The position numbers were made by a program, and so were the translations under genes. 64,000 bases of DNA from a virus (taxonomy: Duplodnaviria; Caudoviricetes). The DNA lies in the IMG/VR virus record IMGVR_UViG_3300021387_000484, positions 1 to 64,000 of that record; one strand, 5' to 3'. The notes beneath the pieces were generated by a model that worked only from the letters and a program-made list of their open reading frames with translations, had not been told where the DNA came from and made no database searches. Positions 19,826 through 51,098 of this stretch are shown in pieces. Every line of letters starts with the position of its first letter. Within the stretch, counting starts at the first letter, position 1.

Positions 19826-20905
19826 TCAGCAGACGCCGACCGCGATAAGGCAGGACAGGGGGTAGTAAACGATGACACCGGCAGTCCTCGCTTCGCAGGG
19901 GATTACGGTATCAAGGTTCCTGACCTGAATCGGATACTGGCGGAACGGCATGGGGTTCTCAAGAGAGAGCTTCCTGACATCGTTCTTGAACAGGAAAGCG
20001 ACGCCGACACCCTCGGTGGTGACGAAGCTCTGTCCGTCGACGCTGTAGGAAACGCCGGTCACGGCGTAAGGGTTGGTCTCCGGGGAATCCGCATCCAGCT
20101 CGGCAGTGGAAATGACCTCTTTGATATAAGGTGCATGGTCCAGAACGAACTTCAGGACAGTGGTGCTGGTGTCCGGGATACGGCGGGTGGAGATATCCAT
20201 ATAAACATCGGCGGGGACACACAGGGTGTCGGGGCGCTCGACGTTCTTGGTGACCTTTGCGACCTGCTTTGCCATGCCGTTGACATCGTCAAGGATTTCA
20301 TCGGCACTCTTCTCAGTCCACTTGGTCTTGCCGGTCGTGCCGCCAGCGGCGACAAGATAGAGCGGGATGTTCTGGCCTGCGGACAGAACGCCCATCAGAC
20401 CGGAGCCCTTGTCACCGGCCCATGCGATGCGGTTGATAAGGTTGTCCACCTGATAGCGGGCAGACTCACCCTTTCTTGCGTCAAGGGACTTGCCAGCCAG
20501 TCTGGAAGCGCGCATCTCCTGTGCGGAGTAGCCGTAGCTGTCGCCGATAGACTTAATCTGAGCGAAGCTGGGCTTGCCGATGACATCAGCTCTGGGCAGG
20601 TCCGTGGAGTAGTTGTCCAGAACCTTTGCCAGACCGACGTTATCGTAGGTGTAGTAGGTAATGGTCTCTGCGCCTTCGTCCGCATCAGAAGTCTGAGGGA
20701 ACAGGGACAGAGCGGTGAGCTCGGGATACTCAACGTCATAGGACTGAGCCTTGACGTGGTCCAGCTCACGTGCGAAGAACACGGACGCGTCGTCCGCGCT
20801 GTCGAATCTTGTGCCCGCAGAGGCCATGATGGTTGCGGGAATACCGGAATTGCGGAGGGCTTTCATATCAGCCCTGTCGTAGGATGTGTGTCTTCTCTTA
20901 GCCAT
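19826..20905 (-). CDS. Major capsid protein (DUF2184/linocin-like family)
   Basis: TRFDSADDASVFFARELDHV..DLPRAD..YGYSAQEMRA..PCEARTAGVIVYYP. Confidence 0.88.
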   Translation of the reverse strand: MAKRRHTSYDRADMKALRNSGIPATIMASAGTRFDSADDASVFFARELDHVKAQSYDVEYPELTALSLFPQTSDADEGAETITYYTYDNVGLAKVLDNYSTDLPRADVIGKPSFAQIKSIGDSYGYSAQEMRASRLAGKSLDARKGESARYQVDNLINRIAWAGDKGSGLMGVLSAGQNIPLYLVAAGGTTGKTKWTEKSADEILDDVNGMAKQVAKVTKNVERPDTLCVPADVYMDISTRRIPDTSTTVLKFVLDHAPYIKEVISTAELDADSPETNPYAVTGVSYSVDGQSFVTTEGVGVAFLFKNDVRKLSLENPMPFRQYPIQVRNLDTVIPCEARTAGVIVYYPLSCLIAVGVC

Positions 20906-20923
20906 AGCTTTCGCCTCCCTTCA

Positions 20924-21418
20924 TTACGCCTGTGCCTGATTGAACAGCTCAACCTCGGCAACACGGTTCGACTCGTCAACGGTCCCAAGGAAGCGCGCCT
21001 TGATGGCAACGGTGCCGGTGGAACTGTTGGTGACATATCCTGCCTGCTCACCGGACTTGATAAAGTAGACCGCATCGCCATAGGCGGGGGTCACATTGTC
21101 CGCGACGCGGCAGTAGACGCGGCCATATCTCATGATGCCAACCGGGGCACCCTTGAGGATGCGGATTTTTCCGTCAAGGTCATATTCAGTAGTCAGGTTG
21201 TTGGTGGCGACGCCTTCGAAGTCGGCGGCAGTGGAACCCGAAACGGGCTTCTTAATCTGCACGCCCTTCGCGGTACCGGAAACGACCGCGATACCGAAGG
21301 TCATGACGCCGTTCTCTTCCTCATTCTTGAGGGTGTCGATGGCATAGGGCGCAAGGTCGACGATGCCGCCCGGTACGCCAAGGGGTGTGGAATATCTGTA
21401 AGCAGTCTGTGCACTCAT
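20924..21418 (-). CDS. Capsid cement/decoration protein (Gp24-like)
   Basis: MSAQTAY..GVPGGIVD..FGIAVV..IMRYGRVYC; lies between scaffold and capsid genes. Confidence 0.75.
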   Translation of the reverse strand: MSAQTAYRYSTPLGVPGGIVDLAPYAIDTLKNEEENGVMTFGIAVVSGTAKGVQIKKPVSGSTAADFEGVATNNLTTEYDLDGKIRILKGAPVGIMRYGRVYCRVADNVTPAYGDAVYFIKSGEQAGYVTNSSTGTVAIKARFLGTVDESNRVAEVELFNQAQA

Positions 21419-21442
21419 ATTTCTGGACCTCCTCTTACTTGA

Positions 21443-23053
21443 TTATTTGCTTCTCTTCTTCTGGCGGCGCGCAATCATCCGCTGGCGTGCGTCCTCGGCA
21501 GAGTTGCCCCTTCTGCGGGAAACGGCGCGGCGGGAGTCGCGGTTGAACATCTGCTTCTTCTGGAAGCGGGTGTCCTTTCTGGTGCGTGCCTTCACATCAT
21601 CACACGCAAGGTCGAACATTGCGTTGATGTAGGTGTCGCCCTTGCCATCCAGACGGATGTTGGGGCGGACCATGCGGATGACCGCCTTCTTGGCCGCGCG
21701 CAGGGGCATATTCTCAAGGCCGTCAAGGTGGAGCTTCTCGGCGACGATGCCAAGCTTCACGCGGGTGCGGACAATCTTGTCGATGGAGTCTGCATTCATG
21801 ACCTTGGCCTCGGCCTCGGTAGTCACGGGAATGTCCTCGTCTGCGTCGTCCTCAGCAAGCTCAGGGTCGACTTCCTCGTCCTCGTCCTCTGCGTAGGGGT
21901 CAAGCTCCTCGTCCTCGTCCTCAGCATAGGGGTCAAGCTCCTCGTCCTCGTCCTCGACAAGGGCCGGGTCTTCCTCCTCGTCCTCGTCCTCTGCCAGAGT
22001 GGGGTCGACTTCCTCGTCCTCATCCTGATTCTCCTGCTCATTGGTGAAGGGGATGTCCGCATCCTCGTCGTCCTGATTCTCTTCCTCAGGCGGCAGTTCC
22101 TCGCCCTCATCGGTCTTCGCGCCCTTGAAGTCGCGCTCGGCCAGCAGAGTGTCGATGATGTCCAGAAGGGTCTGGATATCCTCGTCCTGATGCTGGATAG
22201 TCTCGTTTGCCTGTGCAAGGTCGTCCTCTTCGGCGTCGGCCTTGGCCTGCATCTTCTCGCGGATTTCCTCGGTCATCTCCTCTTCAGGGGTGACATCATC
22301 CTCGTCCTCTGTGACAGGGGGAAGGTTCAGGTCCTTCAGTTCCTCATCCTCGTCGGTATTGCCCCCCTGTCCCGCTTCGGGATGGCGGGCTCTGTACTCC
22401 TTGATGGCCTCCTTGAGCTCATCAGGGGACAGAATGCCGTCAGCGCGTCTGACGCGTCTGACTCTGCCTTTGGTTCTGGTCTTGGTTGTCTTCCTGTATC
22501 CCATTACTGATACTCCTTTCTTTTCTGCGCCCTTGCCGTCTATGTTCAGCCGGGCCTGCTCTCCTGCCCTCGCCTCCCTAACAAGGGCAAGGTGGTTGAT
22601 ACGGATGTTCCGCTGTATCGCGTCGTATTTTTCACCGTTCCACACGCCCGGTGTCTCATCAAGGTCAAGGTTATAGCCAAGAGAGAGTTCCTTGAGCCCG
22701 CTTGCCTTCATCTCATCCGTGTCGTGGATGACGATTTTGGCGCGGACGTTCTCCCCGTCCTTGAAGCCTTTGCTCAGGATGGTCCCTATCTCGTTCTCGG
22801 CTACGTTGTCCTTGGTGATGAGTCCCGCGTCATGGCTTATGATGATGGGGGACCCCTCATAAGACGCAAGGCTTTCCTTTGAAAATACCTCCTCGGGGAG
22901 GCGGAGTTCCTTTCGGACGGACCCGTCCGGGTTCGAGTACTCGAAAATGCCCGTGCAAGTCAGTATAGGAGTGTCCATAAGGAATCCCTCTGGCGTAAAG
23001 GAAGCCCTTGTTATCGGCATGCTGTCGAGTCTAATGACCCTCTTGAGTTTCAT
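21443..23053 (-). CDS. DUF2213 prohead protease/scaffold
   Basis: TPEGFL..GIFEY..ELRLPEEVF..KELSLGY..IRINHLALVREARAG, followed by an acidic scaffold region and a basic C-terminal helix. Confidence 0.88.
   Translation of the reverse strand: MKLKRVIRLDSMPITRASFTPEGFLMDTPILTCTGIFEYSNPDGSVRKELRLPEEVFSKESLASYEGSPIIISHDAGLITKDNVAENEIGTILSKGFKDGENVRAKIVIHDTDEMKASGLKELSLGYNLDLDETPGVWNGEKYDAIQRNIRINHLALVREARAGEQARLNIDGKGAEKKGVSVMGYRKTTKTRTKGRVRRVRRADGILSPDELKEAIKEYRARHPEAGQGGNTDEDEELKDLNLPPVTEDEDDVTPEEEMTEEIREKMQAKADAEEDDLAQANETIQHQDEDIQTLLDIIDTLLAERDFKGAKTDEGEELPPEEENQDDEDADIPFTNEQENQDEDEEVDPTLAEDEDEEEDPALVEDEDEELDPYAEDEDEELDPYAEDEDEEVDPELAEDDADEDIPVTTEAEAKVMNADSIDKIVRTRVKLGIVAEKLHLDGLENMPLRAAKKAVIRMVRPNIRLDGKGDTYINAMFDLACDDVKARTRKDTRFQKKQMFNRDSRRAVSRRRGNSAEDARQRMIARRQKKRSK
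21863..22025 (-). repeat. About five tandem 33-39 bp repeats encoding EDEDEE(L/V/E)DP(Y/A/T/E)
   Basis: gggtc(a/g)a..ctcctcgtcctcgtcctc units visible on the plus strand. Confidence 0.85.
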
Positions 23054-23644: not shown

Positions 23645-24457
23645 TCACCTCCTTGTCACCGTATACTGGAATCCGTACTTCTGTGCTTTTTCCTTTAACC
23701 ACTTGTCCCTCATCTCACCAAGCTTGCCGTTCAAACGGTCGCATTCCTTGTCGAATTCGTCTTTCGTGAGAAGCCCTTCCATGTACAGCTTCTCGATAGG
23801 GAAGTATTCCTTGTCCACATCATTTTTGTGTTTTGCCTGCGCATACGCATAGTCCTGCGCGAAATACTCAGACTCTGGGAATTCACCGTCCATGCGCGCA
23901 AGTTCATAGTCCGCTTTATCGGAAGTGGCGCGAATGGAAGCAAGGTTCGCATGTACAAGAAGGTTCAGGTCCTCTGTGCTGAACGTGGTCCCGCTCGGAT
24001 GGTTGTGCGTCAGGTTCGCCCCGTTCATCTTCGCCACCTGCTCCGCCGTGAACGCCACTTGGCTTTTATGTCCTTGGCTCTCCTTGAACAGGACGTTCCC
24101 ATCTGCCTCTATGACATAAGCCGACTCCGTCTTGTTGCTTCGAATGCCCTTTTCGACATTTTCTAGCGATGTCCTGTACTCAGGGCTTACTCCCGCGCCC
24201 TTGACGAGTTTTGGTACACTGGCCTTGCCGGTCGCCTTTTTAGTGGACCTCGCCCGGGAAAAATCTTTCCCCTTTGCCCAGCCCCCTGCGCCGCCAATCG
24301 CCATGCCTTGGGAGTTTAACGGGACATGTTCCCCATTGCTCTTGAGAGTAATCCAGCTGTCTGGCTCCTCTGAATAGGTCCCCTTGGCGTCCATCCGTCT
24401 TTTCCGAAGCGAATGTCTTATCCGCACAAGGGACCGGTCCATTGATAATCTGTCCAT
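23645..24457 (-). CDS. Tagged cargo protein with JAB/MPN-like metalloprotease domain
   Basis: Leader LVRIRHSLRKRRMD plus WITLKSNGEHVPL tag; ESAYV...THNHPSGTTFSTEDL matches the JAB E..HxH..S..D motif. Confidence 0.75.
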   Translation of the reverse strand: MDRLSMDRSLVRIRHSLRKRRMDAKGTYSEEPDSWITLKSNGEHVPLNSQGMAIGGAGGWAKGKDFSRARSTKKATGKASVPKLVKGAGVSPEYRTSLENVEKGIRSNKTESAYVIEADGNVLFKESQGHKSQVAFTAEQVAKMNGANLTHNHPSGTTFSTEDLNLLVHANLASIRATSDKADYELARMDGEFPESEYFAQDYAYAQAKHKNDVDKEYFPIEKLYMEGLLTKDEFDKECDRLNGKLGEMRDKWLKEKAQKYGFQYTVTRR

Positions 24458-24470
24458 AGGTCTGCCCCAC

Positions 24471-24498
24471 TAAAAAAGCAGGGCCGATACCCCGCTTT
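24471..24498 (-). terminator. Rho-independent terminator
   Basis: aaagcgggg-tatcg-gccctgcttttt on the minus strand. Confidence 0.65.
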
Positions 24499-24516
24499 CC
24501 TTCTTTTACAATGTTG

Positions 24517-24810
24517 TCAGAATGTCGGCGGTGGTACCTTTTCCGCAAGCGGTATGGAACGTCCTTTCAGGGAAGACCGCTCTACCACCTTCCCTTCCCA
24601 CGTGTAATATGGGTCTTTCATGTCGGGATAGTCCTCTTTGAGAAAGTACTGCCCTGCCATTTCCTGCATGACATAACACTCAAACGAATGCTTATCTTCA
24701 TCGGTAGCTGTTGGTTTTAATCTGAGGTTGAATGTGTCATCCACAGGTCCGCGCTTATCAACAACTGCCAGTTTCTTCCCCCATCTCGTCTGAGGAGCCA
24801 TTCCTATCAT
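24517..24810 (-). CDS. Small paralog family member 1 (DPYYTWEGKVVER), candidate immunity protein
   Basis: Clear paralog of 32913-33182 and 40945-41244; overlaps the stop of the upstream zincin gene. Confidence 0.7.
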   Translation of the reverse strand: MIGMAPQTRWGKKLAVVDKRGPVDDTFNLRLKPTATDEDKHSFECYVMQEMAGQYFLKEDYPDMKDPYYTWEGKVVERSSLKGRSIPLAEKVPPPTF

Positions 24811-26582
24811 CCTAGCCCAACCTCCTTAATAATCTCATTCATTACATCACGCACTGCCAAAGCCACTTCATTCGGGGTGTCTGAACACCTTGCCATCGCC
24901 ATTGCCTCCGCAAGGAATTCAGTATTTCTGCCATATGACGCAATCTCCTTGATTTTTCCTGTCTTCCAGCTTTTTTGGCATCCCCTATTATTTCCTGAAT
25001 AATTGCTTATCGACTCTCTGACTTCCTGCTCTTTTGCCTTTGAGTAACTGCCGTACAATTTTTCTTGCACACGTTTCATGACAGTGTTGGAAAGTCTGCC
25101 ATCATCGAAGTATATACCCTTCCATTTAGCGGCTTCCATGATGACTTTCTCCATGGCATGCGTAAATTCATGGTCAATAACAGACTTGAAGTCTGTGCCT
25201 TTGGGATGGTGCCCGCTTGAAACGTCCTTTTCATACGCCTTTTTTGCATTATTTCTATACTTTGCGGAAACATTTGCGGGATTCCCGTAAAACCCTTCCG
25301 CAAAACTCAGGTGCGTACCATAGGCATACCCATATGTTCCACTAAAGTCCCTATGGTCTGTCTTCTGGTCTTCATAGAAATCATGGCAGTCCATTCCGCT
25401 AAGTTTTCCCTTGAGAAATGGGAAGTCATCAAAGAATTTCTCTGCCTGCGCACCCATAGCCTTTGCGTTTTCAGGCTTCATCTTGGAGATGTCCACGCCT
25501 AAATCGTTAAATAAAACGCTTTTATTTTGGTCTCCAAAGAAACCTTTTGCTCTGAGGTAATCAGTTACTTCTTCCGACGTTTCGCATTCACTTGCAGAAC
25601 CAAACGCTTTCAGCACAGCTTCATTTCTGGCCTTTGCCGCTTCTTCATATTCTTGTTCGAAAGTCCATGAGTCAATGCTCTTGCCCTGCCCGTGCTGTTC
25701 TATCAAATCTTTTTTCTTTTTAAGGAAGGCTACTTCCCTGTTTTCTTTATCCAAGTCGCTTTTAAATTCTTCGACGTTCATTCGCGAAGTAAGCTCTGTA
25801 AGCGCCTCATTTCTCTCTTTCTTTACTGCCTCCAGCCGTTCACGTTTCTTCTTGGCCTCTTCTGCGTCTGCTTCATGCTCATGGAACATCATCCATGTCT
25901 CCAGTTGCATCCATTCCGTTTTTGTGTCACGGCATATCTTTTCAAGCTCATCGTTTGTCTTGTCTGTCTTATGCCCCTCCAGAATCTTTTCAGCCTTATC
26001 AAGCTTCTTTTGGATAGATTTTGCTTTCTTTTCGGTTTTCGAAAGTTTGTCCTCTACATCCGCTCTCTCGGCTTCGATATCCTTTCCTTCCAATTCTCGT
26101 GCCGCATTTATCTTTTGCAGTATATCACGGCAGTTATCGGACTCCTTCTTTGCGGCTGTTTTAAGTTCTGCTTTTACCGATGAAGTAGTCCCGCCTGATG
26201 GCTTGTCCTCTCCTGCGCCAGCCTTCTTTTTGGAAGTCCTCTTAGCGTTTGAAAAGCTCTTACCCTTGGCCCATCCACCGGCGCCCCCTATGGCCACGCC
26301 GTTCTCATCCAAAGGTACGTGCTCGCCGTTGCTCTTTAAGGTTATCCAGCTGTCGGGCTCCGTGGTATATGGCCCGCCCTTTGCGTCACATCGCCTTTTC
26401 CTGAGGTCATGCCGTATACGGACAATGTCCCTCTCATCCTCTATTATTATAGCATATCCGTTTGTGGTGTCAATTCTGGTTTTGCCTTTTATATGCGTTT
26501 CCGAATGTTTCTGTTCAAGCTTGTCTCTCATTGCCTGACGCACACGGATGGCGGCTATCTTCACTTTCGCGCTGTTGTTCAT
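24807..26582 (-). CDS. Tagged cargo protein: coiled coil plus zincin metallopeptidase
   Basis: Leader IVRIRHDLRKRRCD plus WITLKSNGEHVPL; HEFTH ... EFLAEA. Confidence 0.75.
   Translation of the reverse strand: MNNSAKVKIAAIRVRQAMRDKLEQKHSETHIKGKTRIDTTNGYAIIIEDERDIVRIRHDLRKRRCDAKGGPYTTEPDSWITLKSNGEHVPLDENGVAIGGAGGWAKGKSFSNAKRTSKKKAGAGEDKPSGGTTSSVKAELKTAAKKESDNCRDILQKINAARELEGKDIEAERADVEDKLSKTEKKAKSIQKKLDKAEKILEGHKTDKTNDELEKICRDTKTEWMQLETWMMFHEHEADAEEAKKKRERLEAVKKERNEALTELTSRMNVEEFKSDLDKENREVAFLKKKKDLIEQHGQGKSIDSWTFEQEYEEAAKARNEAVLKAFGSASECETSEEVTDYLRAKGFFGDQNKSVLFNDLGVDISKMKPENAKAMGAQAEKFFDDFPFLKGKLSGMDCHDFYEDQKTDHRDFSGTYGYAYGTHLSFAEGFYGNPANVSAKYRNNAKKAYEKDVSSGHHPKGTDFKSVIDHEFTHAMEKVIMEAAKWKGIYFDDGRLSNTVMKRVQEKLYGSYSKAKEQEVRESISNYSGNNRGCQKSWKTGKIKEIASYGRNTEFLAEAMAMARCSDTPNEVALAVRDVMNEIIKEVGLG
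26446..26473 (-). promoter_or_regulatory. Sigma-A-type promoter embedded in coding sequence
   Basis: TTGACA-N16-TATAAT with a TGn extension, encoded as IDTTNGYAII. Confidence 0.6.
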
Positions 26583-26587
26583 GGCCC

Positions 26588-27736
26588 TTATCCTCCCGTG
26601 TACTTGAATTTACCCGGCTCCTGCCTGATGATTACGACTTTGAGCTTATGATATTTTATTCCGTATTTTTCATCCTTTTTTATTTCGTGCCCAATGACCT
26701 GCACCGTGCACCCTCTTTGGAGAAGCATTTCACATTCATTTGAAATCATATCCTGCCCGGATTTTCCATCCCAGCCTCTGCGGTCGCCGAACCCGTGTGC
26801 TGAAAATGGCTCACAGTACAGACCCTTAGTGCCAGCAGGTGCAAGTATCTCCATGTCAACAAAATCATGTAAACCCGTGCCCCTTGCGGCGCCACAGCTC
26901 ATAAAGCCGTTGTCTGTCCCGATACGTCCTACTAACGATATGTCCTCTTTGTCCGTGCGTGCCAGACACCCCTCCGGGAGTCCAAACATTTTTTCAGCGC
27001 CTCCCCATTCTATTCCCCTGAAGAAAACAGTGTCCTTTTCTATTACCGACTTGTCCAAAACTTCGGTAATGTCCTGTATTTTCTGGGCCACATAGTAGTC
27101 ATCAGCTTCACCGGTTCTAAGAGCACCGTTTATATCTTCGTAATCAAATTTAGTATATTCAAACAGTGCATCCTTCTGCTGGTCCGTGCACTCCTGCCAT
27201 ATCTTTGATGTTTTGGAACGATATCTATTGTCAGCGTCTTTTCTGGTTTCTGCCACTTCTGCCTTTGTAAAGGTTTCCGTGGTAATGCCCATTGCCTTTT
27301 TGTCATCACGGGTGAGCTCGTGGTTCGTTTTAGACTTGCTGGGCAATAACACCTTTGCTGTCTGGCCCGGCTCAAACTTCCTTATTTCGCCTGTTTCCTT
27401 GCAGGCAAAAGTCATTTTGCCTGCGTCGTGAACAGTAAAGTGTTTCCCATCCCCGTCAAGGATGATGACATCGGCACTCTTACTGGCAGTGACAATCTCT
27501 TGCTTCCCCAGAGGATGCGCCTTCATGGATTCCTTGCGCTTCTTGCTGATAGCCGTAAGGTCTTTGCCACTTGTCTTGCGATTATGCTTTCCGTTGCCCT
27601 CTTCAGACCCACCTATCTTCCCGGGGCGCCCTGCATGCCCCCAGTTACCAGAACCCGGCCCCCCGTCCATTCTGCGGTTATGTAGGGAACGCCTGATACG
27701 CTTTATATCCTTCTCTATGGCTTTTATCCTGACCAC
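26588..27736 (-). CDS. Tagged ADP-ribosyltransferase (VIP2/C2-like R-S-E class), paralog 1
   Basis: RIRRSLHNRRMD plus GGPGSGNWGHAGRPG; YT..INGALR, FFRG, FMSC, ECEMLLQRG. Confidence 0.85.
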   Translation of the reverse strand: MVRIKAIEKDIKRIRRSLHNRRMDGGPGSGNWGHAGRPGKIGGSEEGNGKHNRKTSGKDLTAISKKRKESMKAHPLGKQEIVTASKSADVIILDGDGKHFTVHDAGKMTFACKETGEIRKFEPGQTAKVLLPSKSKTNHELTRDDKKAMGITTETFTKAEVAETRKDADNRYRSKTSKIWQECTDQQKDALFEYTKFDYEDINGALRTGEADDYYVAQKIQDITEVLDKSVIEKDTVFFRGIEWGGAEKMFGLPEGCLARTDKEDISLVGRIGTDNGFMSCGAARGTGLHDFVDMEILAPAGTKGLYCEPFSAHGFGDRRGWDGKSGQDMISNECEMLLQRGCTVQVIGHEIKKDEKYGIKYHKLKVVIIRQEPGKFKYTGG

Positions 27737-27762
27737 CTTTCATCCCCCACTTTCTATTCGTA

Positions 27763-28983
27763 TCACTCCGTTTGCTTCCTTTTTTTGGAATACTCTGAAG
27801 CGTCAGGGTCCTGCCTTATCAGGGCAACCTTCAACTTGTGTTGCTTTATCCCCAGTTCATTTACCGCTATCTCATGTCCTATGACTTGGAACGTACATCC
27901 TCTCTGTAAAAGGATTTCGCACTCAGGGGAAATGGCTTTTTGGCTTGATTCCCCATCCCAGTCGAACCCGTCCCCTAATCCATTCTTGGAAAAAGGCTCA
28001 CAATACAATCCCTTCGTGCCTTTCGGTGCAAATATCTCAAGGCTAACATGTGATAGTGTGGAAAATCCTGTTCCTACAGCGGCGCCCGTACTGACAAAGC
28101 CATCATCTGTGCCAATGCGCCCGACCATGGAAATATTCTCTTCTGATACACTTCCCGACAGATATCCTTTAGGAAGTCCAAACAATTTCTCTGCACCGTC
28201 TTTGCTTAACCCCCTATGAAGCACAACATCTCTATCGAATTCCGACCTATTCAGTGCCTCTGTGATTTCGTCAATCGGCTCACTCATGCCCCCGTAATCC
28301 GCTTCTCCTTCTCTAATAGTGCTGTTAACCATCCTGTAGCCAAGGTCGGTATACCAATTTAGACTTCTCTTTGTTTTTTCTGGGCTTTGTTTCCAGACCT
28401 CTCCCGCCTGTTTTCTATATGCATCGTCCGCTTCATTCACGTCCTTAGGGTTGAACGCTTTCCCTATCTTCTGAAGGCTCATGGCCATAGTGGCTTTGTC
28501 TTCCTTTGTAAGCTTATAGTTTGGGTTTTTTATCTCCCCTGAGTCTTTTGGAATGACGACACGTGCTTTTTGGCCAATAAACTCTTTCATAAAGAACCCC
28601 GGCGCACTGGTACCGGTTGTTTCACGCATCCAGCCATGTTTTTCGCGAACAAAGATTTCATCTCCCACGAAGATTTTCGAGCCTGTGATTTTTTTAGCCT
28701 TGTCCATATCTTCTTGTGTGAGCCCGTGCGGCTTTGCAAGCTGTTTGCGCGCCTTTTCAGCTTCTTTTATTGCTTTTGAATGTTCTTGCGAAAAAGATGT
28801 ATAACCGCCTTCTTTTTTTGTCTGGCGATTATGCTTACCGCCACCTTCGCCTGAACCGCCCACTTCCCCCGGGCGCCCCTCGTGCCCCCAGTTGCCTGAC
28901 CCGGGACCACCATCAAAGCGTCTTTTCTTCAAGGAGCGGCGTATCCTTAGAATGCTTTTCTCCATGCTTTTTCTGCTTATCAT
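27763..28983 (-). CDS. Tagged ADP-ribosyltransferase, paralog 2
   Basis: RIRRSLKKRRFD plus GGPGSGNWGHEGRPG; LHRG, FVST, ECEILLQRG. Confidence 0.85.
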   Translation of the reverse strand: MISRKSMEKSILRIRRSLKKRRFDGGPGSGNWGHEGRPGEVGGSGEGGGKHNRQTKKEGGYTSFSQEHSKAIKEAEKARKQLAKPHGLTQEDMDKAKKITGSKIFVGDEIFVREKHGWMRETTGTSAPGFFMKEFIGQKARVVIPKDSGEIKNPNYKLTKEDKATMAMSLQKIGKAFNPKDVNEADDAYRKQAGEVWKQSPEKTKRSLNWYTDLGYRMVNSTIREGEADYGGMSEPIDEITEALNRSEFDRDVVLHRGLSKDGAEKLFGLPKGYLSGSVSEENISMVGRIGTDDGFVSTGAAVGTGFSTLSHVSLEIFAPKGTKGLYCEPFSKNGLGDGFDWDGESSQKAISPECEILLQRGCTFQVIGHEIAVNELGIKQHKLKVALIRQDPDASEYSKKRKQTE

Positions 28984-29007
28984 GTGTTTGCTCCCGTTTC
29001 ATGCAAT

Positions 29008-29040
29008 GAAAAAGGACCAGCCTCATCAGCTAGTCCTTCC
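29008..29040 (-). terminator. Rho-independent terminator after the small Cys gene
   Basis: aaggactagc-tgatgag-gctggtcctt followed by a T run. Confidence 0.7.
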
Positions 29041-29059
29041 TTCGACGGGCGTTCCCGTC

Positions 29060-29314: not shown

Positions 29315-29355
29315 ATCTTCTCCCCTTCCCATATAAGGTCACTTACTGCGCCTCT

Positions 29356-29383
29356 ATCGTATCATGGCACATGGAAGTGTCAA
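29356..29383 (-). promoter_or_regulatory. Sigma-A-type promoter for the small Cys gene
   Basis: TTGACA-N16-TACGAT with a TGn extension in the intergenic gap. Confidence 0.65.
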
Positions 29384-29391
29384 TAACCCTG

Positions 29392-40814: not shown

Positions 40815-40892
40815 CCGCGCCTCCTTTTGCCAAACAACTGACAGGTATCTGTACAAATAAAAATCAGCCCTGTGACAGGCCGATTTTCCCCA

Positions 40893-43466: not shown

Positions 43467-45548
43467 TCACCCCTTTCTTTTGAGCAGTGCGTCTCTGATA
43501 CGTGCCACTTTGTCTTCGATACGCAAGGTGCCTGAAGGTCCTTCTTCGGCGCTGTCCCGGTTCTTATTCGGCGCTATCATGCCCGGCACAAGTATCTCCG
43601 ACTCGCCATTCGTAAACACACTCCCGTAGGTATCTATGGGCCTTATCTCCGCCTCGTAGACCACCCCGTTCGGGTCGAACTTTGCCCCCTGTCCGACATC
43701 GCTTCCTGTAAAGCTCTCCGCCACCTTCCTGCTGAATGTGTAGGATGAAAAAGGGGAAACTCCGTCATATTCCTTGCCTGTCCCGCCCCTGTACATCTTG
43801 ATTGGCGTAACCAAGAATTCGTCATACGGAAGCGGCTCGGTACCCTGTTCCTTGCAGAAATATTTGTAGTTGCCGTACATGATGTTCAGTGCGGCATTAT
43901 GCACCTCAGGGCTTTTGGTCATCTGTGCTACAAGGGCTTCTTTGACTTCGTGGTTGTATTCCGTAAACCACTGGTGGACAGTGCCGCTGTACAGGTTGTC
44001 GGCCAGTGTCTCATCAGCCTCGTCCCTGCTCACCTCTTTGAAGTCCTTGGAGCAAAGGGCAAGTCTTGTCTTGTTGTATTCTTCTTTGCACGCCTCGTAC
44101 CCGTCACCGCCCTCATCCTCTATCTTGTGATAAAAGCCGTAGAGCATCTTTGGGTTCCGCTTGTTGCCTATGTTCTTCTTCACAAAATCATCGAAGCTGT
44201 CTTCAAGGGTTACATCGTACCCAGTCTGCGCTGGCTTTAATGCGTCTGTGAGGCTATCCGCGCTTGGCGGCCCACTACGCAAAAGAGCAGGTCCTTTCGA
44301 ACCCGCTCCCGTCTTTACGCTCTTGGCGCGTGAAAATGTCTTGCCCGTAAGCTTGCCGCCCGACTGTGCCACACCCTGTTCATTGAGAAGCACATGCGTC
44401 CCTTTGACTGTTATCCAATCCTCTTCATCAGCCCTTTCCTTTATGGACTGGCGAATCCGATTAATCCTGTCCTCGATTGAAAGGCTATCCTTGTCATCCA
44501 CCCCTTTCAAAGAATCGCTGTTCTTACGCTTCCTCTTTTTTCTCGGTGTAAATGTATATGTAAACCCAAACTTCGCGGCGTTCTTCTTGTAAAACTCATG
44601 GAACGGTTCCGTTTCCAGCCTGCGGGCTTCCTCTTTCACCTTTGCCTTGTACGATTCATTGTAATCGTTATATCCTGATTCCTTCGTATAGGCATTGAGT
44701 TCGTCATTGGTGGCACCGGAATTTTTCATCTCCATCCACTTGTTTTGTATCTTATGCATTTCCCGCATCTCATGGCAGTTCTCAAGGTTTTCCCTCGCCT
44801 GCTGAAGAAGAGCGAATGCACTTACGTCCCTTGGCATTTCAGCTTCAAGAGCATCCCGCATGTCATGCCATCCCCTTGCCTGTTCTTTCGTACCGTACTT
44901 GTCGTTGACAAGGGAATATGTGCCCTCAGGGCAGGCAATGACCATCTCTCTCGCACCAAATCCAAAATCGTCAAGGTCTTCGGGGGAGAATGTCCCGCCC
45001 TCCGGGTGGTTGTGAATGGAAATGTTGCCTTCCATGTGTTGGCGCTTCTCACCGACCTTGGCGTATACTGAGCCGTGTTCGCCCCTCTTTTCCAGAACGA
45101 TGTTCCCGTCCGTGTCTACGATTCTGAGCTGTTCCTTCCTGAGGTTTGCCGTCTTGCTGATTATCTGCCTGATAGTCTTGTCCTGCGCGGCGGGTCTTTG
45201 ATAAGGCTTTGCTTTTCTGGTGCTCTTTGCTTTCGTAAAGGACATCCCTGCAAGTTTTCCGCCCGACTGAGCCACGCCTTCTTCGTTTAAGAGAACGTGA
45301 GTGCCCTTTATGGTCACCCAGTCCTCTTCGTCTTTGTTCTCGTTCTTCGTATCTGTGTAATCAGCAAGGTCTATGACCTCGCCGTCCCACCGCATGTATG
45401 GAACAGACATCTGCGGATAGAGCGACCTGTAAAACTGCGTCCAGCCATATGTGTTACGGCTCTTTTCGAACCTTCCCTTTTCTATCGCGGTCGCCTGCTT
45501 TGTCATGCAGTCCGCTCTTTCGTCATAGTGCGGTATCTTCATGTCCAT
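43467..45548 (-). CDS. Two-cassette cargo protein: JAB-like protease plus ADP-ribosyltransferase-like domain
   Basis: WVTIKGTHVLL then IHNHPEGGTFSPEDL; internal leader RIRQSIKERAD plus WITVKGTHVLL, then MYRG..FSSYT..ESEILV. Confidence 0.75.
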   Translation of the reverse strand: MDMKIPHYDERADCMTKQATAIEKGRFEKSRNTYGWTQFYRSLYPQMSVPYMRWDGEVIDLADYTDTKNENKDEEDWVTIKGTHVLLNEEGVAQSGGKLAGMSFTKAKSTRKAKPYQRPAAQDKTIRQIISKTANLRKEQLRIVDTDGNIVLEKRGEHGSVYAKVGEKRQHMEGNISIHNHPEGGTFSPEDLDDFGFGAREMVIACPEGTYSLVNDKYGTKEQARGWHDMRDALEAEMPRDVSAFALLQQARENLENCHEMREMHKIQNKWMEMKNSGATNDELNAYTKESGYNDYNESYKAKVKEEARRLETEPFHEFYKKNAAKFGFTYTFTPRKKRKRKNSDSLKGVDDKDSLSIEDRINRIRQSIKERADEEDWITVKGTHVLLNEQGVAQSGGKLTGKTFSRAKSVKTGAGSKGPALLRSGPPSADSLTDALKPAQTGYDVTLEDSFDDFVKKNIGNKRNPKMLYGFYHKIEDEGGDGYEACKEEYNKTRLALCSKDFKEVSRDEADETLADNLYSGTVHQWFTEYNHEVKEALVAQMTKSPEVHNAALNIMYGNYKYFCKEQGTEPLPYDEFLVTPIKMYRGGTGKEYDGVSPFSSYTFSRKVAESFTGSDVGQGAKFDPNGVVYEAEIRPIDTYGSVFTNGESEILVPGMIAPNKNRDSAEEGPSGTLRIEDKVARIRDALLKRKG

Positions 45549-45556: not shown

Positions 45557-45775
45557 TCAGAGCATAATACCCTCTTTAGGCGGGTCAACGTAATAGTCCC
45601 ACGGATGCTTTTCATCGACGCATCGCTTGTAGAAAGCCTCCGTCTTTTCGTCTGGCTTTCTAAACCACGGGTTCATGTTCCCCGCGCCGAACATCCCGAT
45701 ATAATCAGCTGTGTGCGGAAAGCCCTGTTCCCTCATCAAATCAGCTATGGCCTTATCCCTCTGTGTCAGTTTCAC
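45557..45775 (-). CDS. Small hypothetical protein coupled to the portal fusion gene
   Basis: Overlaps the portal stop codon (GTGA). Confidence 0.55.
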   Translation of the reverse strand: MKLTQRDKAIADLMREQGFPHTADYIGMFGAGNMNPWFRKPDEKTEAFYKRCVDEKHPWDYYVDPPKEGIML

Positions 45776-48700
45776 TTCTTGAAAGCCTCCTTGTAAGTAG
45801 CTTCCGCCGCCGCATACATATTGGGCGTTATCGCCTTGAGCAGTTCCAACTCACTCTCATGCCCGAAAGCCTTGAGCTCACAATAGTTTGCCCAATACTC
45901 TAAACATTTTGCGGACGCTCTCCCGCCCCCAGATGGGGTCAGCCAATAATCACGGCTATGACCACCGTAAAACATCAACCCACCACTGTATTCCTCTGTC
46001 AGTGCACTCACCGCATCACTGACCGCGCTGAGGTCCTGAACTATCTGCTGATGCCCCCATTCCATAAACTTTTTAAAGGCGTTGTCGCGTTCCTCGTCGT
46101 TTGCGAACCACCCATCACCGTTTGTCTTAAAACCGATGACTTTTGCCATCGCTTCAAAGTCTTCCTTTGCCCTCTTTCCACCATATGGCACAAGGTGTTC
46201 AAGGTTCATCGAAGCAGATGTTATTCTGATTTTCTGTCCGTCCATTGTGTCGTATTCTATGTCCACAGCACCGTCGTCAAGAGCATGCCCCATCTCATGG
46301 ATGAATGTCTCTGCCCCTCGTATTGAACCGAAATAGACTTTTCCGTCCATTGGGTCAAAGTATGACGTTTGTCCCTCTTGCAACTTCTCGATATCCGTTT
46401 TTCTGAGGGTTTTTTCATAGACTGCCCTGACTTCATCAGGCATCGCCTTATAAGCTTCCCTCAGGCGCTGGACCTCATGCTGGCTTGCACCGTTGAGTCC
46501 GAAATTGATATCAAAGAAATCACCTTCTACCTTCTGCCCGGACAGCATGGTCATGTTATCGCACAGGTCTCCGTCTTCAGATTCCCAGTCATTGTTGCCG
46601 CAATACCGGTAATTCCTGCCGTCCTTGCCAACTATGACGGTGCCTTCGCCGACCTCGGACAGGTCTTCTTTCTGCATGGTCACCTGTGCTTTTTCAAGGA
46701 GCGGTTTGTCTGCCTCCCAAGGGGAATCTTGGTTCCTGAAGTTCTTTGCGGCGTGCTTCCTTTGCGCCTCCTCTTTTTCCTCCTCTGATTTAGCGGACTT
46801 GCTTATGTATGCCCGCGTTTCAGCTTCTCTGTCAAGAAAGATGTCCGTGATATCCCCGGACTTCCACGAACCGCTCTCGCCAGTCCCGTACTCGCGCCAC
46901 CTTCCTGAGTCCGTCTTGATGTATCTATAGGATTCATCCCCGTCGGATGATTCAGGTACAGTGATAATCGAGCCTGTTTCTAAGGTATCAAGCAGTTCTG
47001 CCACCTTCCTCTGGTCATCCCTGCGGGACTCGCTGGTAGATTTTTCCGCAATATCAGACAGTTCCTTGTTCAGTTTGCTCTTGGAGGGTTGGAAGAGCGG
47101 CATCTTCGTTTTTCCCACCTTTTTGGTGGTATTCTCACTTTCCGCATCCGGGAAAGACATGCCCTTCAGGTCGCCGCCGTTCTGAGCGGTCCCCTCATCG
47201 TCTATCAGGATGTGTGTCCCGTTGACGGTAATCCACTGCTCATCGTCGGCATGGATGTTCTTTCCAGTAATCGTCTGCACCAGCTTCTGGAAGCCGACCT
47301 CGAAAGGTCTGAACAGCCGCCCTGAGTGTTCTATCTCCTCAATGGCGGTAAACCTCGCCTGATGCATTTCCTCTTCGTCGCACTTTGGCGTCCCCTCATA
47401 CCTGACACATAAGAACAGGTCGGGGCACAGGCCGTTCGTCTGCTTCTCGCCCTTGCCAAATGGTATCAGCTCCATGGGCGTTATGCCGAATTCTTCCTGT
47501 GTCTCACGGATGGCCGCCTGCCCCGGTGTCTCACCTTCTTCGATATGGCCGCCCGGACCGCAGATAAGGTGTTCGCCGTCGCCCGCGCCACGGACGCCTG
47601 TGAGTACCATGCCGTCCTTTATCACGTATACGCCGACTGCGCCCTGAGCGCCTGCGTCCATGCACGCCTCTTCCCTGACGCTGTCGCCGTAGGCTTTATA
47701 CCCGGCCCCCGTGAAGGCTTTGTAGCGCTTGCCGTCCCTGCCGACTATCTCCTCGGTGTAAAGGTCGCTAATAGCCGGTTTTTGGCCGTCCTCGTCCTCT
47801 CTGGATGCCGTTCTGTAATCCCTTATAGAGATATCCCCCTTGCGGGTTCGGACCAGCCTAGAGCCGTGTGGCGGCCTTACAGGCACATTGCCAAGCCATG
47901 CGCTCCTGAGTGTGTCTTCAGGTTCCTCTGTGCCGTGCCATGCTCTCTTTAAGGTGTCGTCTTCTGGCTTAACCCCAAACCACGCATTGCGCAGGGTATC
48001 AGCCGGGTCCTTCTTTACCTCGGGCTCTTCTTTTGGCTCTTCCTTGGGGGTGTTCCCAAGCCACGCGTTCCTGAGGGTGTCGCCGGGCAGGGGAGCCTTA
48101 GAGGGATTGATAATCCTCTCTGCCCCTTCCTGCTCGCCGCCCTGTGCTGTGATTCCAAGCCATGCGTTGCGCAGGGTATCCTCAGGCTCCGCGTCCTGAT
48201 TCTTCTCTTCCTGTGGCTTTTCGGCCTCAGGCTTCTTTGCCGCAGGCTCCTTAGGCAGTGCCTTTGACCCTTCTGGCTTTATCATTTCAGACTTACCGGC
48301 AAGCTGTTGTTTCGCTTCATTTGCCTTTGCCTGTTCCTTGCCGCTCATATCTACCGGCAGTTTCGTGGCCGCTGGCGCCGCCGCAGGTGCGTTCCCGCCA
48401 AGGTCTGTATCCTTAGGTTTGCCGCCCTGTGCAAGCTCTGGCTTTACGCCCGCTTTCTTCGGGTCTGCCTTGGGCTGTACCTTGCCAGACGGAACTCCGC
48501 CCATAGGGTCTTTTTCACCCGCTGGCATCCCCTCTGGCTGTTGTGCTTTTGGCTTTTCTCCGCTCTCTGGCGCGCCCTCAGCAGATGCTCCTTCAGGCGG
48601 CATCATACCCGGCATACCGCCCGGTGCTCCGCCTTCTGCGCCCGGCATACCGCCGCCCATACCCGGCATTCCTTCCATGCCCGGCATACCGCCGCCCTCT

Positions 48701-50136
48701 GCCTGCTTCTTCATGGGGTCGTTCTCTTCCAACTCTTCCTCGGTATACTCGTCAAGCATGGTCTCGACATCGAATTCCTCGGAATCAGCAAGCTTCTTTC
48801 TGACCTCGGACGGGTCAAGGGCCTGCATCTGGACGTATACCATAGCGGTATTTGCCTTGGTGTTCTCCACCTGTGCCCGCATCTGGTCAAGGGATACTTC
48901 CTCCTGCTCAGACAAGGACCACAGTGGGTTAAATTCCACCTTTATCGGCGGGACTTCGTCTATCTCACCGGACAAAACCCCCGCCTGAAAGATGATGGAA
49001 AGAAGATACCTCAGGTTCTTCTTGAGCATCCGCTTCTGGATGCGCTCCACGTAGTTGTACCAGTTCTCAAGGTCGCCCATGCCTGTAGAGTTCATCCCCG
49101 CCGGTGACCTGCCGAACAGGATGGTCTGCGGAATGGATGTCAGTGCCGACAGGAAGTTGCATGTCGTGTCGATGACCTCGGAAACGCCCGTGAATGAAAA
49201 TTGCCTGAAGCTGTAATCCTCTCCCTCGCTGTCAATGGTGATGGAGTTCAAAAGCCCCCTCGCCATGTCGATGGTCTGAAGGCGCCTCAGCACTCTGTCC
49301 TCGCCTTCTTCGGTAGCAAGCTCAGCAGACAGGTCCTTCATGGAGTAGACCGCCTGTATGGACCTGTCGAGCATCTTCGGTGCAGTGCCGTGGGCTATCT
49401 CCGCATCCCTTATCGCTTTTTTGAGACGCACGTACTCGGGCATGCCCCAAAGCTGATAATAGGAATTGGACGTGTTCTCGGGCAGTATCCCGTTCTGGAA
49501 TACAAGGCATCTGGAATCGTGCACCCTGAAATTCCCGTACTTGCTGAACACGTCATAGTATTCAGGCATCCCCAGCCTGCTACCTCTGGTCCCGAACGGG
49601 TCATCCGGGTCATAGGAGAACATAGTGCTGTAGTCTGGCTGTATCAGGGACCGGTCATACACCCGTATATCGTCTATGGACTTGATGTTCCTCCAGTCAA
49701 GGGGCTCGTCAACGCCCCTGCCGTCATTAATCATCAGAACGGCTATGGAACCTCCAAAGAGCCTTGCCCACTTGATGCAGGTCATGGCCGTCTCTTCCCA
49801 GTCCAGTTCGTCAAGGGCCTCCATGTAGAAGTCCTCTATCTCTTGGTCTTTTACGTCCTTGAGCTCAAACCCGTGCTTTATCGCCTCCTCTGCGGGAGCG
49901 TCAATGATTTTTGAAAAAAGCCCGTTCCCCTCGTAGAACATGGTCAGTTCGTCGTCGGGAATCGGCGGCTCCTGCTTGAATTCATACCGTTCCGAAGAAT
50001 CTCTCGAAGTGCCGTACTTTGTGAGCAGGTTGACGTAACCGTCCATCCGGTAGGGCCTGACGACTCTGCCGGTCTGCTTCCGTATTAAATCTGTATAGCG
50101 TCTCAGTGAGTCTATCTTTTCCTGCCTGCTTGCCAT
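45772..50136 (-). CDS. Portal protein (DUF1073-type) fused to linker, NUDIX hydrolase and zincin peptidase (1454 aa)
   Basis: N-terminal ~470 aa: KIIDAPAEEA..WARLFGG..IPQTILFGRSPAGMNSTG..DLENWY..FNPLW. Nudix box GGHIEEGETPGQAAIRETQEEFG; WITVNGTHIL tag; HEMGH. Confidence 0.85.
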   Translation of the reverse strand: MASRQEKIDSLRRYTDLIRKQTGRVVRPYRMDGYVNLLTKYGTSRDSSERYEFKQEPPIPDDELTMFYEGNGLFSKIIDAPAEEAIKHGFELKDVKDQEIEDFYMEALDELDWEETAMTCIKWARLFGGSIAVLMINDGRGVDEPLDWRNIKSIDDIRVYDRSLIQPDYSTMFSYDPDDPFGTRGSRLGMPEYYDVFSKYGNFRVHDSRCLVFQNGILPENTSNSYYQLWGMPEYVRLKKAIRDAEIAHGTAPKMLDRSIQAVYSMKDLSAELATEEGEDRVLRRLQTIDMARGLLNSITIDSEGEDYSFRQFSFTGVSEVIDTTCNFLSALTSIPQTILFGRSPAGMNSTGMGDLENWYNYVERIQKRMLKKNLRYLLSIIFQAGVLSGEIDEVPPIKVEFNPLWSLSEQEEVSLDQMRAQVENTKANTAMVYVQMQALDPSEVRKKLADSEEFDVETMLDEYTEEELEENDPMKKQAEGGGMPGMEGMPGMGGGMPGAEGGAPGGMPGMMPPEGASAEGAPESGEKPKAQQPEGMPAGEKDPMGGVPSGKVQPKADPKKAGVKPELAQGGKPKDTDLGGNAPAAAPAATKLPVDMSGKEQAKANEAKQQLAGKSEMIKPEGSKALPKEPAAKKPEAEKPQEEKNQDAEPEDTLRNAWLGITAQGGEQEGAERIINPSKAPLPGDTLRNAWLGNTPKEEPKEEPEVKKDPADTLRNAWFGVKPEDDTLKRAWHGTEEPEDTLRSAWLGNVPVRPPHGSRLVRTRKGDISIRDYRTASREDEDGQKPAISDLYTEEIVGRDGKRYKAFTGAGYKAYGDSVREEACMDAGAQGAVGVYVIKDGMVLTGVRGAGDGEHLICGPGGHIEEGETPGQAAIRETQEEFGITPMELIPFGKGEKQTNGLCPDLFLCVRYEGTPKCDEEEMHQARFTAIEEIEHSGRLFRPFEVGFQKLVQTITGKNIHADDEQWITVNGTHILIDDEGTAQNGGDLKGMSFPDAESENTTKKVGKTKMPLFQPSKSKLNKELSDIAEKSTSESRRDDQRKVAELLDTLETGSIITVPESSDGDESYRYIKTDSGRWREYGTGESGSWKSGDITDIFLDREAETRAYISKSAKSEEEKEEAQRKHAAKNFRNQDSPWEADKPLLEKAQVTMQKEDLSEVGEGTVIVGKDGRNYRYCGNNDWESEDGDLCDNMTMLSGQKVEGDFFDINFGLNGASQHEVQRLREAYKAMPDEVRAVYEKTLRKTDIEKLQEGQTSYFDPMDGKVYFGSIRGAETFIHEMGHALDDGAVDIEYDTMDGQKIRITSASMNLEHLVPYGGKRAKEDFEAMAKVIGFKTNGDGWFANDEERDNAFKKFMEWGHQQIVQDLSAVSDAVSALTEEYSGGLMFYGGHSRDYWLTPSGGGRASAKCLEYWANYCELKAFGHESELELLKAITPNMYAAAEATYKEAFKK
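47890..48180 (-). repeat. Five DTL(R/K)xAW(L/F/H)G peptide repeats in the portal linker
   Basis: DTLRNAWLG, DTLRNAWLG, DTLRNAWFG, DTLKRAWHG, DTLRSAWLG. Confidence 0.85.
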
Positions 50137-50186: not shown

Positions 50187-50225
50187 CCCGTATCTTATGT
50201 ATGTGCCCTCGCGGGCCGTTCCGTG

Positions 50226-50537
50226 TTACTCCAAATCATCCTCGTCATCGTCATCGTCTTCCCGTTCGGGAAGGTCGTCGTAGACCTCGTTCATGCAATC
50301 AAGCATGTACTCAAGCCTCTGCTGTGCGTCCAGCGCCGCCCTGACGTTCTCTGTGACCTTCACGTCGTCATGCCCGCCGAAGTGCTTGTTCAGCTCCTCG
50401 ACGGAGTTGTCCTCGAAGAATCCCTCAGGGAGCGTGTCCAGATAGTCGACGATAGCGTCGAAGACTTCCAGTTCCGCATCCGACAGCGCGTTCACTTTCT
50501 TCTTGGCTTCAGCCGCCAGCTTCGTAAGTTCACCCAT
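50226..50537 (-). CDS. Small, highly acidic protein
   Basis: AGGAGG RBS; D/E-rich with an acidic tail. Confidence 0.7.
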   Translation of the reverse strand: MGELTKLAAEAKKKVNALSDAELEVFDAIVDYLDTLPEGFFEDNSVEELNKHFGGHDDVKVTENVRAALDAQQRLEYMLDCMNEVYDDLPEREDDDDDEDDLE

Positions 50538-50552
50538 ATAAACCTCCTCCTC

Positions 50553-51098
50553 TTATAACTTGGACCTTCTCTCGGCGGTCTTTCCACCCCTGCTCTTGTT
50601 GCCGCCCCTCGTGGTGCGGTTGGGGAAAGCATACTGGATAGCCGCCCTTGTACCGGAGATTTTGGATACGCTGGACTCTCTCGCCCTCTTGCCGCGTCCC
50701 TTGACATCCTTGAGGATGTTCGCGCTTGCATGCTCATCAATCTGCCTTACGACCTGATAGCCCTTCTTCCCGGCGTTCTTCACATTAGCGGACTTGACGT
50801 TCATGTTTACCTTGCCCATGCGCTTCTGCGCGCGGGCAAGTGCCTTCGGGCTCCGCATCTGCATGGCAAGGGAATGAGCCTCTTTCATTTCGCGCCTCAC
50901 CTTTGCCTGAGAAGTGTACGTTTTTGAAACAGTCTTCAGCATGCGGAAGCCCCTGCCGCCTCCGGGAGCCGACCCGCCTTTATGTCCGGGTACGCCGACG
51001 TGTCCCCAGTTGCCGCTTCCTTCACCGCCATCTTCACGCCTGCGTCTTTTCAGGCTCTTCCTTATCGTTTCCACTTTCCTGAGAGTCCTTGTTTCCAT
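50553..51098 (-). CDS. Tagged, highly basic protein
   Basis: AGGAGG RBS; TIRKSLKRRRRED plus GGEGSGNWGHVGVPGHKGGS, then a K/R-rich body. Confidence 0.7.
   Translation of the reverse strand: METRTLRKVETIRKSLKRRRREDGGEGSGNWGHVGVPGHKGGSAPGGGRGFRMLKTVSKTYTSQAKVRREMKEAHSLAMQMRSPKALARAQKRMGKVNMNVKSANVKNAGKKGYQVVRQIDEHASANILKDVKGRGKRARESSVSKISGTRAAIQYAFPNRTTRGGNKSRGGKTAERRSKL

Follow-up and report, generated by a model that had tools for sequence, protein, structure and literature searches.

Analysis of a phage head module points to a single protease that would mature the head and also process enzymes packaged in it. The window under study (64,000 nucleotides, positions 1-64,000 of the 100 kilobase (kb) IMG/VR record IMGVR_UViG_3300021387_000484) belongs to an uncultured gut myophage of roughly 100 kb, and the head-module genes of the region are all on its minus strand. 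Among them lie a gene for a DUF2213 protein and genes for cargo proteins that carry one of two conserved sequence modules, named here tags 1 and 2. An original prediction had noted a short motif, [RNHK]-x-D-[GSADE], at domain borders of structural and cargo proteins, and had attributed it to cleavage after Asp by the DUF2213 protein. This basic-x-Asp site is found on the capsid, the portal, the scaffold and some twenty enzymes that are presumably packaged. In our reading, to which we give a probability of about 0.6, the DUF2213 protein is an Asp-specific protease that matures the head and cuts the tagged cargo inside the procapsid.

The process would run as follows, the arrow marking each putative cut. 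The protease would be co-assembled through its scaffold part, the capsid protein would lose about 35 residues at D35↓S36, and the portal and the MuF protein would be trimmed by the same enzyme, which would also use five or six conserved Asp sites to dismantle its scaffold part. Each packaged cargo protein would be cut at the Asp just upstream of its tag, in such a way that basic amphipathic leader helices, probably procapsid-targeting peptides like the capsid-targeting sequence of T4, would be freed, polyproteins would be split into single enzymes (ADP-ribosyltransferases, a zeta-like kinase, NUDIX and others) and the tags would stay at the new N-termini. The enzymes would presumably be ejected with the DNA. 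The further idea that the leaders keep toxins latent until packaging was found to be unsupported.

The protease candidate is encoded as follows:

21443-23053 (-): DUF2213 protease-scaffold protein, 536 amino acids (aa); Pfam PF09979, expectation value (E) 7e-33; phrog_530 'head maturation protease', E 7e-83

The match to the PF09979 profile (114.4 bits against a cut-off of 22) covers residues 18-169, and the family is labelled a domain of unknown function in Pfam and a head maturation protease in PHROGs. Residues 1-172 form the protease domain, and the remainder is acidic, helical (both properties hold for the C-terminal 330 residues) and scaffold-like, ending after an Asp site in a basic helix that resembles the leaders of the cargo proteins. 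In an alignment of 24 sequences from viral contigs, down to 15% identity, only Pro69, His74, Ser124, His154 and Ala156 were invariant; His74, Ser124 and His154 are thus the sole invariant polar residues, and they are also kept in PB1 gp22 and T1 gp50. The catalytic set of herpesvirus assemblins is Ser-His-His. As the full-length model was poor, with a predicted local distance difference test (pLDDT) of 56, it was replaced by a domain-only model built using an alignment with distant homologues. This model of residues 1-185 had a pLDDT of 74.6, with disordered termini at 1-15 and 161-185 (pLDDT below 50 from residue 161). When compared by VIA-align with T4 gp21 (5jbl_A) it gave a Z of 11.8 and a root-mean-square deviation of 2.8 Å over 140 residues, and the varicella-zoster virus protease gave a Z of 8.0, against 5.7 for the best unrelated chain. 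A Foldseek search with the model placed gp21 and herpesvirus proteases in 11 of the top 12 listed rows, with E-values of only 6e-3. The place of the gene, in the order MuF, cargo, DUF2213, cement and capsid, fits a prohead protease as well. Because of the assemblin fold of the model and the invariant His/Ser/His set, we identify the DUF2213 protein as a serine prohead protease of the T4 gp21/herpesvirus assemblin fold, fused to a scaffold and predicted to be active, as the original prediction had proposed. Regarding the fate of the scaffold, a remnant comprising residues 286-326 is found inside the capsid in the homologue Pa193 gp24 (PDB 9b40), where it is described as 'possibly cleaved'.

The DUF2213 protein itself contains six candidate sites, the conservation of which was scored in 46 homologues:

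23021-23035 (-): I-R-L-D10↓S, N-terminal; R8, L9, D10 and S11 at least 90% conserved
22535-22546 (-): N-I-D172↓G, end of the protease domain; N170 and D172 invariant
22436-22450 (-): R-R-A-D205↓G, protease-scaffold linker; D205 invariant, G206 at least 90% conserved, linker otherwise variable
21785-21796 (-): N-A-D422↓S, scaffold part; N420 and D422 invariant
21644-21655 (-): R-L-D469↓G, scaffold part; L468, D469 and G470 invariant
21533-21544 (-): N-R-D506↓S, before the basic C-terminal helix; N504 invariant

All of these except D172 had been listed in the original prediction. The D172 site has an equivalent in T1 gp50 (N-L-D189↓A), and the place of D10 is occupied by Q-R-F-D↓S both in T1 gp50 and in gp35 of Faecalibacterium phage FP_Brigit. 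The latter is the closest cultured relative of the window phage, with the same head gene order and a DUF2213 protein whose alignment covers 66% of the query at 49% identity.

The other structural sites of the original prediction, namely those of the capsid, portal and MuF proteins, were also located:

19826-20905 (-): major capsid protein (PF09950), Pfam E 1e-53; PDB relatives include the T1 capsid 9kzj
20798-20812 (-): capsid T-R-F-D35↓S36, predicted mature N-terminus
31771-32685 (-): MuF head-morphogenesis protein, Pfam PF04233
32452-32466 (-): MuF site T-R-E-D77↓G
50038-50052 (-): portal site Y-R-M-D32↓G

The capsid site reads [R/H]-F-D↓[S/N/G/D] in 120 of 120 close homologues, and distant capsids from three viral loci (L022, L026 and L047) show N-F-D↓D, Q-I-D↓S and A-M-D↓A at an equal distance from the conserved N-arm helix. 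Of 21 MuF homologues 20 retain R-x-D, the stretch around it being variable, and in the portal R-x-D↓G-Y-V-N is conserved in homologues while P2, the second residue before the cut, varies. The same Asp sites are seen in FP_Brigit; no virion proteomics is included in the paper on this phage, and no statement on processing was found in that on Pam3.

Literature on relatives offers capsid termini at the corresponding places. The virion capsid of the PB1-like phage KPP12 has S-N-F-T-A-P as its Edman N-terminus (PMC3474789). In the PB1 capsid gene this string follows A-M-D64, which corresponds to a cut at D64↓S65, and the capsid model of E217 from cryo-electron microscopy (cryo-EM) begins at residue 66; PB1 gp22 is a DUF2213 homologue. 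The cryo-EM model of the T1 capsid begins at residue 27 (PMC11945409). The sequence there is K-Q-D26↓A27, T1 Asp26 aligns with Asp35 of the window capsid, and T1 gp50 is DUF2213-like (E 6.5e-26). By analogy with these Asp↓Ser and Asp↓Ala termini, the DUF2213 clade of the window probably cuts after Asp (P1), P3 being preferably R, N or H and P1' small or acidic. Within this clade a basic P3 is favoured, not obligatory. What stands of the claim of one Asp-specific protease is backed by the capsid N-termini that follow Asp in KPP12 and T1, by the conserved sites and by the recurrence of the rule in other phages, described below; the cut in the window phage, and that of cargo in phages with DUF2213, keep the status of predictions.

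Equivalent early x-x-D sites followed by a small residue are present in T1 (10583-13732), at portal K-H-D7↓G, MuF K-F-D45↓A and gp50 R-F-D8↓S. T1 could thus be a laboratory model for the structural-protein sites.

The cargo genes and their modules are distributed between the large terminase gene and the DUF2213 gene:

50916-51098 (-): leader and tag 1 of a 181-aa protein (ATG at 51098), leader ending in R-E-D↓G
45772-50136 (-): fusion of portal, NUDIX and further modules, 1454 aa; Pfam portal E 7e-71, NUDIX E 4e-13
47128-47253 (-): internal H-A-D↓D and tag 2 of the portal fusion
43467-45548 (-): 693-aa two-cassette protein, with N-K-D↓E and tag 2 (45228-45410), an internal leader helix with R-A-D↓E and tag 2 (44325-44507), and a C-terminal leader-like helix after N-R-D↓S
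41718-42905 (-): zeta-toxin-like kinase, Pfam Zeta_toxin E 2e-18
42675-42857 (-): two leader helices (R-E-D↓G and R-M-D↓K) and tag 2 of this kinase
35385-40856 (-): 1823-aa polyprotein with four tag 2 modules (39648-39830, 38490-38672, 37182-37364 and 36114-36296), each preceded by [R/H]-x-D
33538-35154 (-): 538-aa cargo protein, leader R-M-D↓A and tag 2 (34927-35109)
33193-33507 (-): 104-aa protein, leader helix and tag 2 (33220-33402)
26588-31759 (-): four ADP-ribosyltransferase paralogues, Pfam ADPrib_exo_Tox E 1e-18 to 1e-27
31577-31759, 30388-30567, 28798-28980 and 27551-27733 (-): N-terminal basic leaders of these paralogues, ending in R-[M/F]-D↓G, each followed by tag 1 (from alignment)
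23645-26582 (-): 591-aa and 270-aa cargo proteins, leaders R-C-D↓A and R-M-D↓A, tag 2 at 26256-26438 and 24263-24445

Tag 1, present in five proteins, is a Gly-rich sequence of the form G-G-x-G-S-G-N-W-G-H...G-R-P-G...G-G-S. In tag 2 an acidic run precedes W-I-T-x-x-G-x-H, after which comes a Gly-rich tail; this module occurs at twelve places, some of them internal (in the portal fusion and in the 693-aa and 1823-aa proteins). The tags are the sole similarity common to many of the cargo proteins. Most modules are preceded by a basic amphipathic helix of the I-R-I-R-x-S-L type (8 occurrences against 0.23 expected), and ten proteins have basic leaders of 20-60 residues that end in R-x-D; where the helix is internal or C-terminal, it is bounded by Asp sites. 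The leader endings and internal cassette borders listed in the original prediction were all found. N-K-D↓S and H-K-D↓E of the 1823-aa protein are present too, but they sit at equivalent places within two paralogous domains and not directly before a tag, so we regard them as weaker site candidates. Several unrelated domains are thus combined in one polypeptide among the virion genes (portal-NUDIX, and the four- and two-cassette proteins), as in the so-called polyvalent proteins. The C-terminal module of the portal fusion contains a zincin-like H-E-M-G-H near residue 1280, with a weak LPD39 match nearby (E 0.022).

The enrichment of the motif that had been proposed was confirmed for position and not for overall number. 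Composition-preserving shuffles were used as the null, and [RNHK]-x-D-[GSADE] is referred to as the loose motif, which by background rate is expected about once per 160 residues of the head and cargo proteins. The DUF2213 protein alone has 15 matches against 5.4±2.2 in shuffles, a figure to be read with the caveat that an acidic low-complexity stretch lies inside it. The tail proteins (3-19723), which the original prediction had suggested as a comparison, are depleted, with 11 matches against the 22.3±4.5 expected from composition (z -2.5). Before the tags the picture is the opposite: a match lies within 30 residues upstream in 16 of the 17 cargo modules, and the 509 residues just upstream of the 17 tags contain 20 matches, while the remaining 7128 residues of these proteins contain 29. 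This corresponds to an odds ratio of 10 and a Fisher p of about 1e-11, which overstates the case because the modules are paralogues.

These counts bear on the simplest alternative, in which the motif is a chance pattern of charged, Asp/Arg-rich proteins, with the borders picked afterwards. In agreement with it, the overall count equals the shuffle expectation, and chance probably explains many of the remaining matches. As an explanation of the whole it is very improbable, having in mind the positional odds ratio, the conservation of sites in homologues amid variable flanks, and the independent recurrence of the P3/P1 rule in 32 sites of other phages; for the structural and tag-proximal sites it is largely excluded.

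Those other phages were reached with a profile of the leader and tag 1, which matched 3,572 representative proteins at E ≤1e-3 in 1.8 billion, many of them polyproteins with up to ten tags. Among the matches listed, 89 proteins have at least three tags, and in 83 of these the residue before the tag belongs to one class per protein, against a mean of 9.8 and a maximum of 19 in shuffles. For the other variable positions of the tag such uniformity is seen in no more than 30-34 of the 89 proteins, and for P2 in none. Across lineages the P1 classes are Asp, Lys, Asn, Glu and Leu/Ala. Of 32 Asp-class sites, 29 have R, N, H or K at P3, which, as these phages are unrelated, reproduces independently the motif of the original prediction. 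P3 is R or K in 157 of 192 sites of the Leu/Ala class, and the Glu class reads L-x-E, that is, the rule of T4 gp21. In other phages, [R/H/N]-x-D and an acidic run also stand before tag 2. Spontaneous Asp-Gly or Asn-Gly chemistry was considered for the D and N classes and rejected, since the K, E, L and A classes cannot arise in this way.

Across 72 viral loci, which are related to each other, the P1 class was compared with the clade of the protease. The close DUF2213 clade is present in 22 of 26 Asp-class loci and in no locus of any other class, the distant DUF2213 clade is present in 15 of 22 Leu/Ala/His-class loci, and neither was found in the 11 Lys/Glu/Asn-class loci (0/11). This suggests a partition of P1 class with protease clade. 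In the phages of the Lys/Glu/Asn classes, Pfam and PHROG scans of neighbouring open reading frames (ORFs) revealed no protease, and searches of whole, near-complete records found none of PF04586, PF09979, PF00574 and PF10123; PF03420 gave no match either, but it was also silent in control genomes and is uninformative. A PF09950-type capsid was not found in the examined stretches of Leu/Ala-class loci, so that the co-variation of capsid site and tag P1 could be followed within the Asp class only. Nor could MuF be upheld as the tag's universal partner, since just one of five records gave a match, and that below threshold.

Two arrangements in these loci deserve description. In the Leu-class contigs L063 (6401-7027) and L065, a protease domain of the distant DUF2213 clade has an extra Cys-rich G-A-C-S...G-C-G after the second His, followed directly by R-A-L↓G-G-P-G-S-G-H, that is, a tag with the lineage's own P1. 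The Glu-class contig L052 (10001-14101) encodes a 1366-aa polyprotein with four tags and L-x-E before each, in a phage whose capsid is Mu gpT-like and for which no protease family could be recognised.

A broader proposal, that tag 1 is a pan-phage cassette (over 3,500 clusters) before which each lineage sets the P1 of its own protease (one of Asp, Lys, Asn, Glu and Leu/Ala, each accompanied by a distinct P3/P4 signature), is put forward tentatively, as we rate it slightly below even odds. The pairing of the tag with different P1 residues across lineages implies that the tag serves a step independent of protease type.

The partition bears as well on a second alternative, in which the cut at the Asp sites is made by another enzyme, either the zincin-like module of the portal fusion or a host protease. 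The H-E-M-G-H and LPD39 matches mentioned above speak for it, as does the metallopeptidase-driven processing proposed by Iyer et al. (PMC5512222). On the other hand, no metallopeptidase family was significant in profile searches, and KPP12/PB1, T1 and FP_Brigit keep the capsid and scaffold Asp sites without having the portal fusion; for these two reasons the zincin-like module is less likely. The P1 class partitions with the DUF2213 clade, and conserved sites lie in the linker and the disordered ends of the DUF2213 protein itself, as in self-processing prohead proteases. Cleavage by another enzyme is thus quite improbable.

A third alternative leaves the cargo intact. The basic helix, the Asp and the tags would then be a non-cleaved packaging or linker module, with the cargo delivered whole like the N4 virion RNA polymerase, and the Asp and P3 would be conserved through contact with a procapsid receptor (scaffold, portal or capsid interior) that co-evolves with the lineage. 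This polymerase and several polyvalent proteins are indeed delivered unprocessed, according to Iyer et al. (2017, PMC5512222), and residues uniform within a lineage fit the co-evolution of a binding partner equally well. The tag also occurs in phages without a recognisable prohead protease, so it must work without DUF2213, and cleavage of the cargo is itself a step that we infer. Against this, the same D-small site is the experimental point of capsid maturation in KPP12 and the first modelled residue in T1, and the Glu-class sites fit the T4 cleavage rule. Uniformity of P1 in 83 of 89 proteins together with that of P2 in 0 of 89 is typical of protease subsites, and the Asp site always lies between helix and cargo, whether the helix is N-terminal, internal or C-terminal. 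We consider a non-cleaved module unlikely on balance.

Coming back to cleavage by the DUF2213 protease, several points weigh against it. The loose motif is at chance level overall in the head and cargo proteins, with 71 matches against 61.0±7.3 in shuffles, and 56 against 56.0 when the DUF2213 protein is removed; many individual matches must therefore be non-functional, and most of the 71 are probably noise. The 17 modules are paralogous and the viral loci related, in such a way that the enrichment and partition statistics overstate independence. The 104-aa tagged protein has no basic-x-Asp site, being the sole exception among the 17 modules. The T1 evidence consists of the first modelled residue only, which could reflect disorder and not a cut; PB1-like capsids have Ala at P3 (A-M-D↓S), so that the P3 rule is clade-specific; and the portal R-x-D may be structural, as its surroundings are conserved in general. 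The occurrence of the tag in phages without a recognisable prohead protease means that its own function is left unexplained by the protease. Finally, cleavage in the window phage, the targeting role of the helix and ejection are, like the cutting of the cargo, steps that we infer.

The closest known parallel is T4 gp21 with the capsid-targeting sequence of IPI-III and Alt. It shares the protease fold, an acidic P1, capsid, scaffold and packaged ejection proteins as substrates, short N-terminal propeptides that end in a protease site, and packaged ADP-ribosyltransferases. The rule differs, being L/I-x-Glu in T4 and Asp at P1 with R, N or H at P3 in the window phage. Unlike T4, the window phage has a DUF2213-family protease fused to a scaffold, tags on the P' side, cargo polyproteins and a portal fusion, and is known from genes alone. 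In giant phages a single protease (phiKZ gp175, SPN3US gp245) with a three-residue motif (A/S/G-x-Glu) also acts on capsid, portal and abundant ejection proteins, and propeptides are proposed to target proteins into the prohead, but these exceed 100 residues and have no repeated tag, P1 is Glu, and the genome scale and capsid are other. The PB1-like DUF2213 protein (Pa193 gp24) and T1 gp50 are homologous to that of the window, lie between the MuF and capsid genes, and are accompanied by capsids that begin right after Asp. They differ in being described as scaffold or left unannotated, with protease activity and Asp specificity unstated, and no tagged cargo array is found there.

The polyvalent proteins (Iyer et al. 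2017, PMC5512222) and MuF polymorphic toxins are similar in other respects. They are multi-enzyme polypeptides among head genes with portal/MuF fusions, predicted to be packaged and injected, and with the same enzyme types (ADP-ribosyltransferase, NUDIX, ParB-like and zeta-like). The difference lies in the processing, for which that work proposes zincin autoprocessing. The Gly-rich tag, the leader helix and a prohead-protease site are not mentioned in its passages on these terms, and a literature search for the tag strings found no paper.

The complete order of the head module is large terminase, small leader-bearing protein, portal-NUDIX fusion, 693-aa two-cassette protein, zeta-toxin-like protein, 1823-aa polyprotein, 538-aa protein, MuF, the four ADP-ribosyltransferase paralogues, the 591-aa and 270-aa proteins, DUF2213 protein, cement protein and major capsid protein, followed by the tail genes. 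Other elements of the region are:

51180-53360 (-): large terminase, 726 aa; Terminase_6N match only from profile position 77, at residue 364
56093-57163 (-): ORF with a start (E-P-V-L-T-P-T-G-F...) resembling that of the terminase insert
40945-41244, 32913-33182 and 24517-24810 (-): three paralogous small ORFs (89-99 aa) among the cargo genes

The large terminase has some 320 extra residues after a Walker-A-like G-G-S-A-G-G-G-K; this insert begins with E-P-V-L-T-P-F-G-F, has a weak LAGLIDADG_3 match (E 0.23) and may be an intein. The resemblance of the ORF at 56093-57163 suggests a second Hint-like element or a free-standing relative of the insert. The three small ORFs have a nearly identical core, D-P-Y-Y-T-W-E-G-K-V-V-E-R, and could encode immunity or chaperone partners.

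Polyvalent and MuF-linked proteins are thought to be injected weapons, and how they enter the capsid, and whether they become separated, is the question that cleavage by the DUF2213 protease addresses. Given a clade-specific P1 and a conserved tag, sequence alone would suffice to predict cargo and its mature ends. A function and a specificity could be assigned to DUF2213, a family found in over 1,000 phage records, among them those of T1-like and PB1-like therapeutic phages, and the cultured relative FP_Brigit, or T1 and PB1, are open to simple experiments. For the packing of foreign proteins into capsids, the leader/tag system would provide a design taken from nature. If tag 1 were in addition a pan-phage cassette, the specificity of uncharacterised prohead proteases would be readable from genomes, the DUF2213 family would comprise an Asp-specific and a Leu/Ala-specific clade, and the tag would serve a conserved step, for example head retention or threading through the tail.

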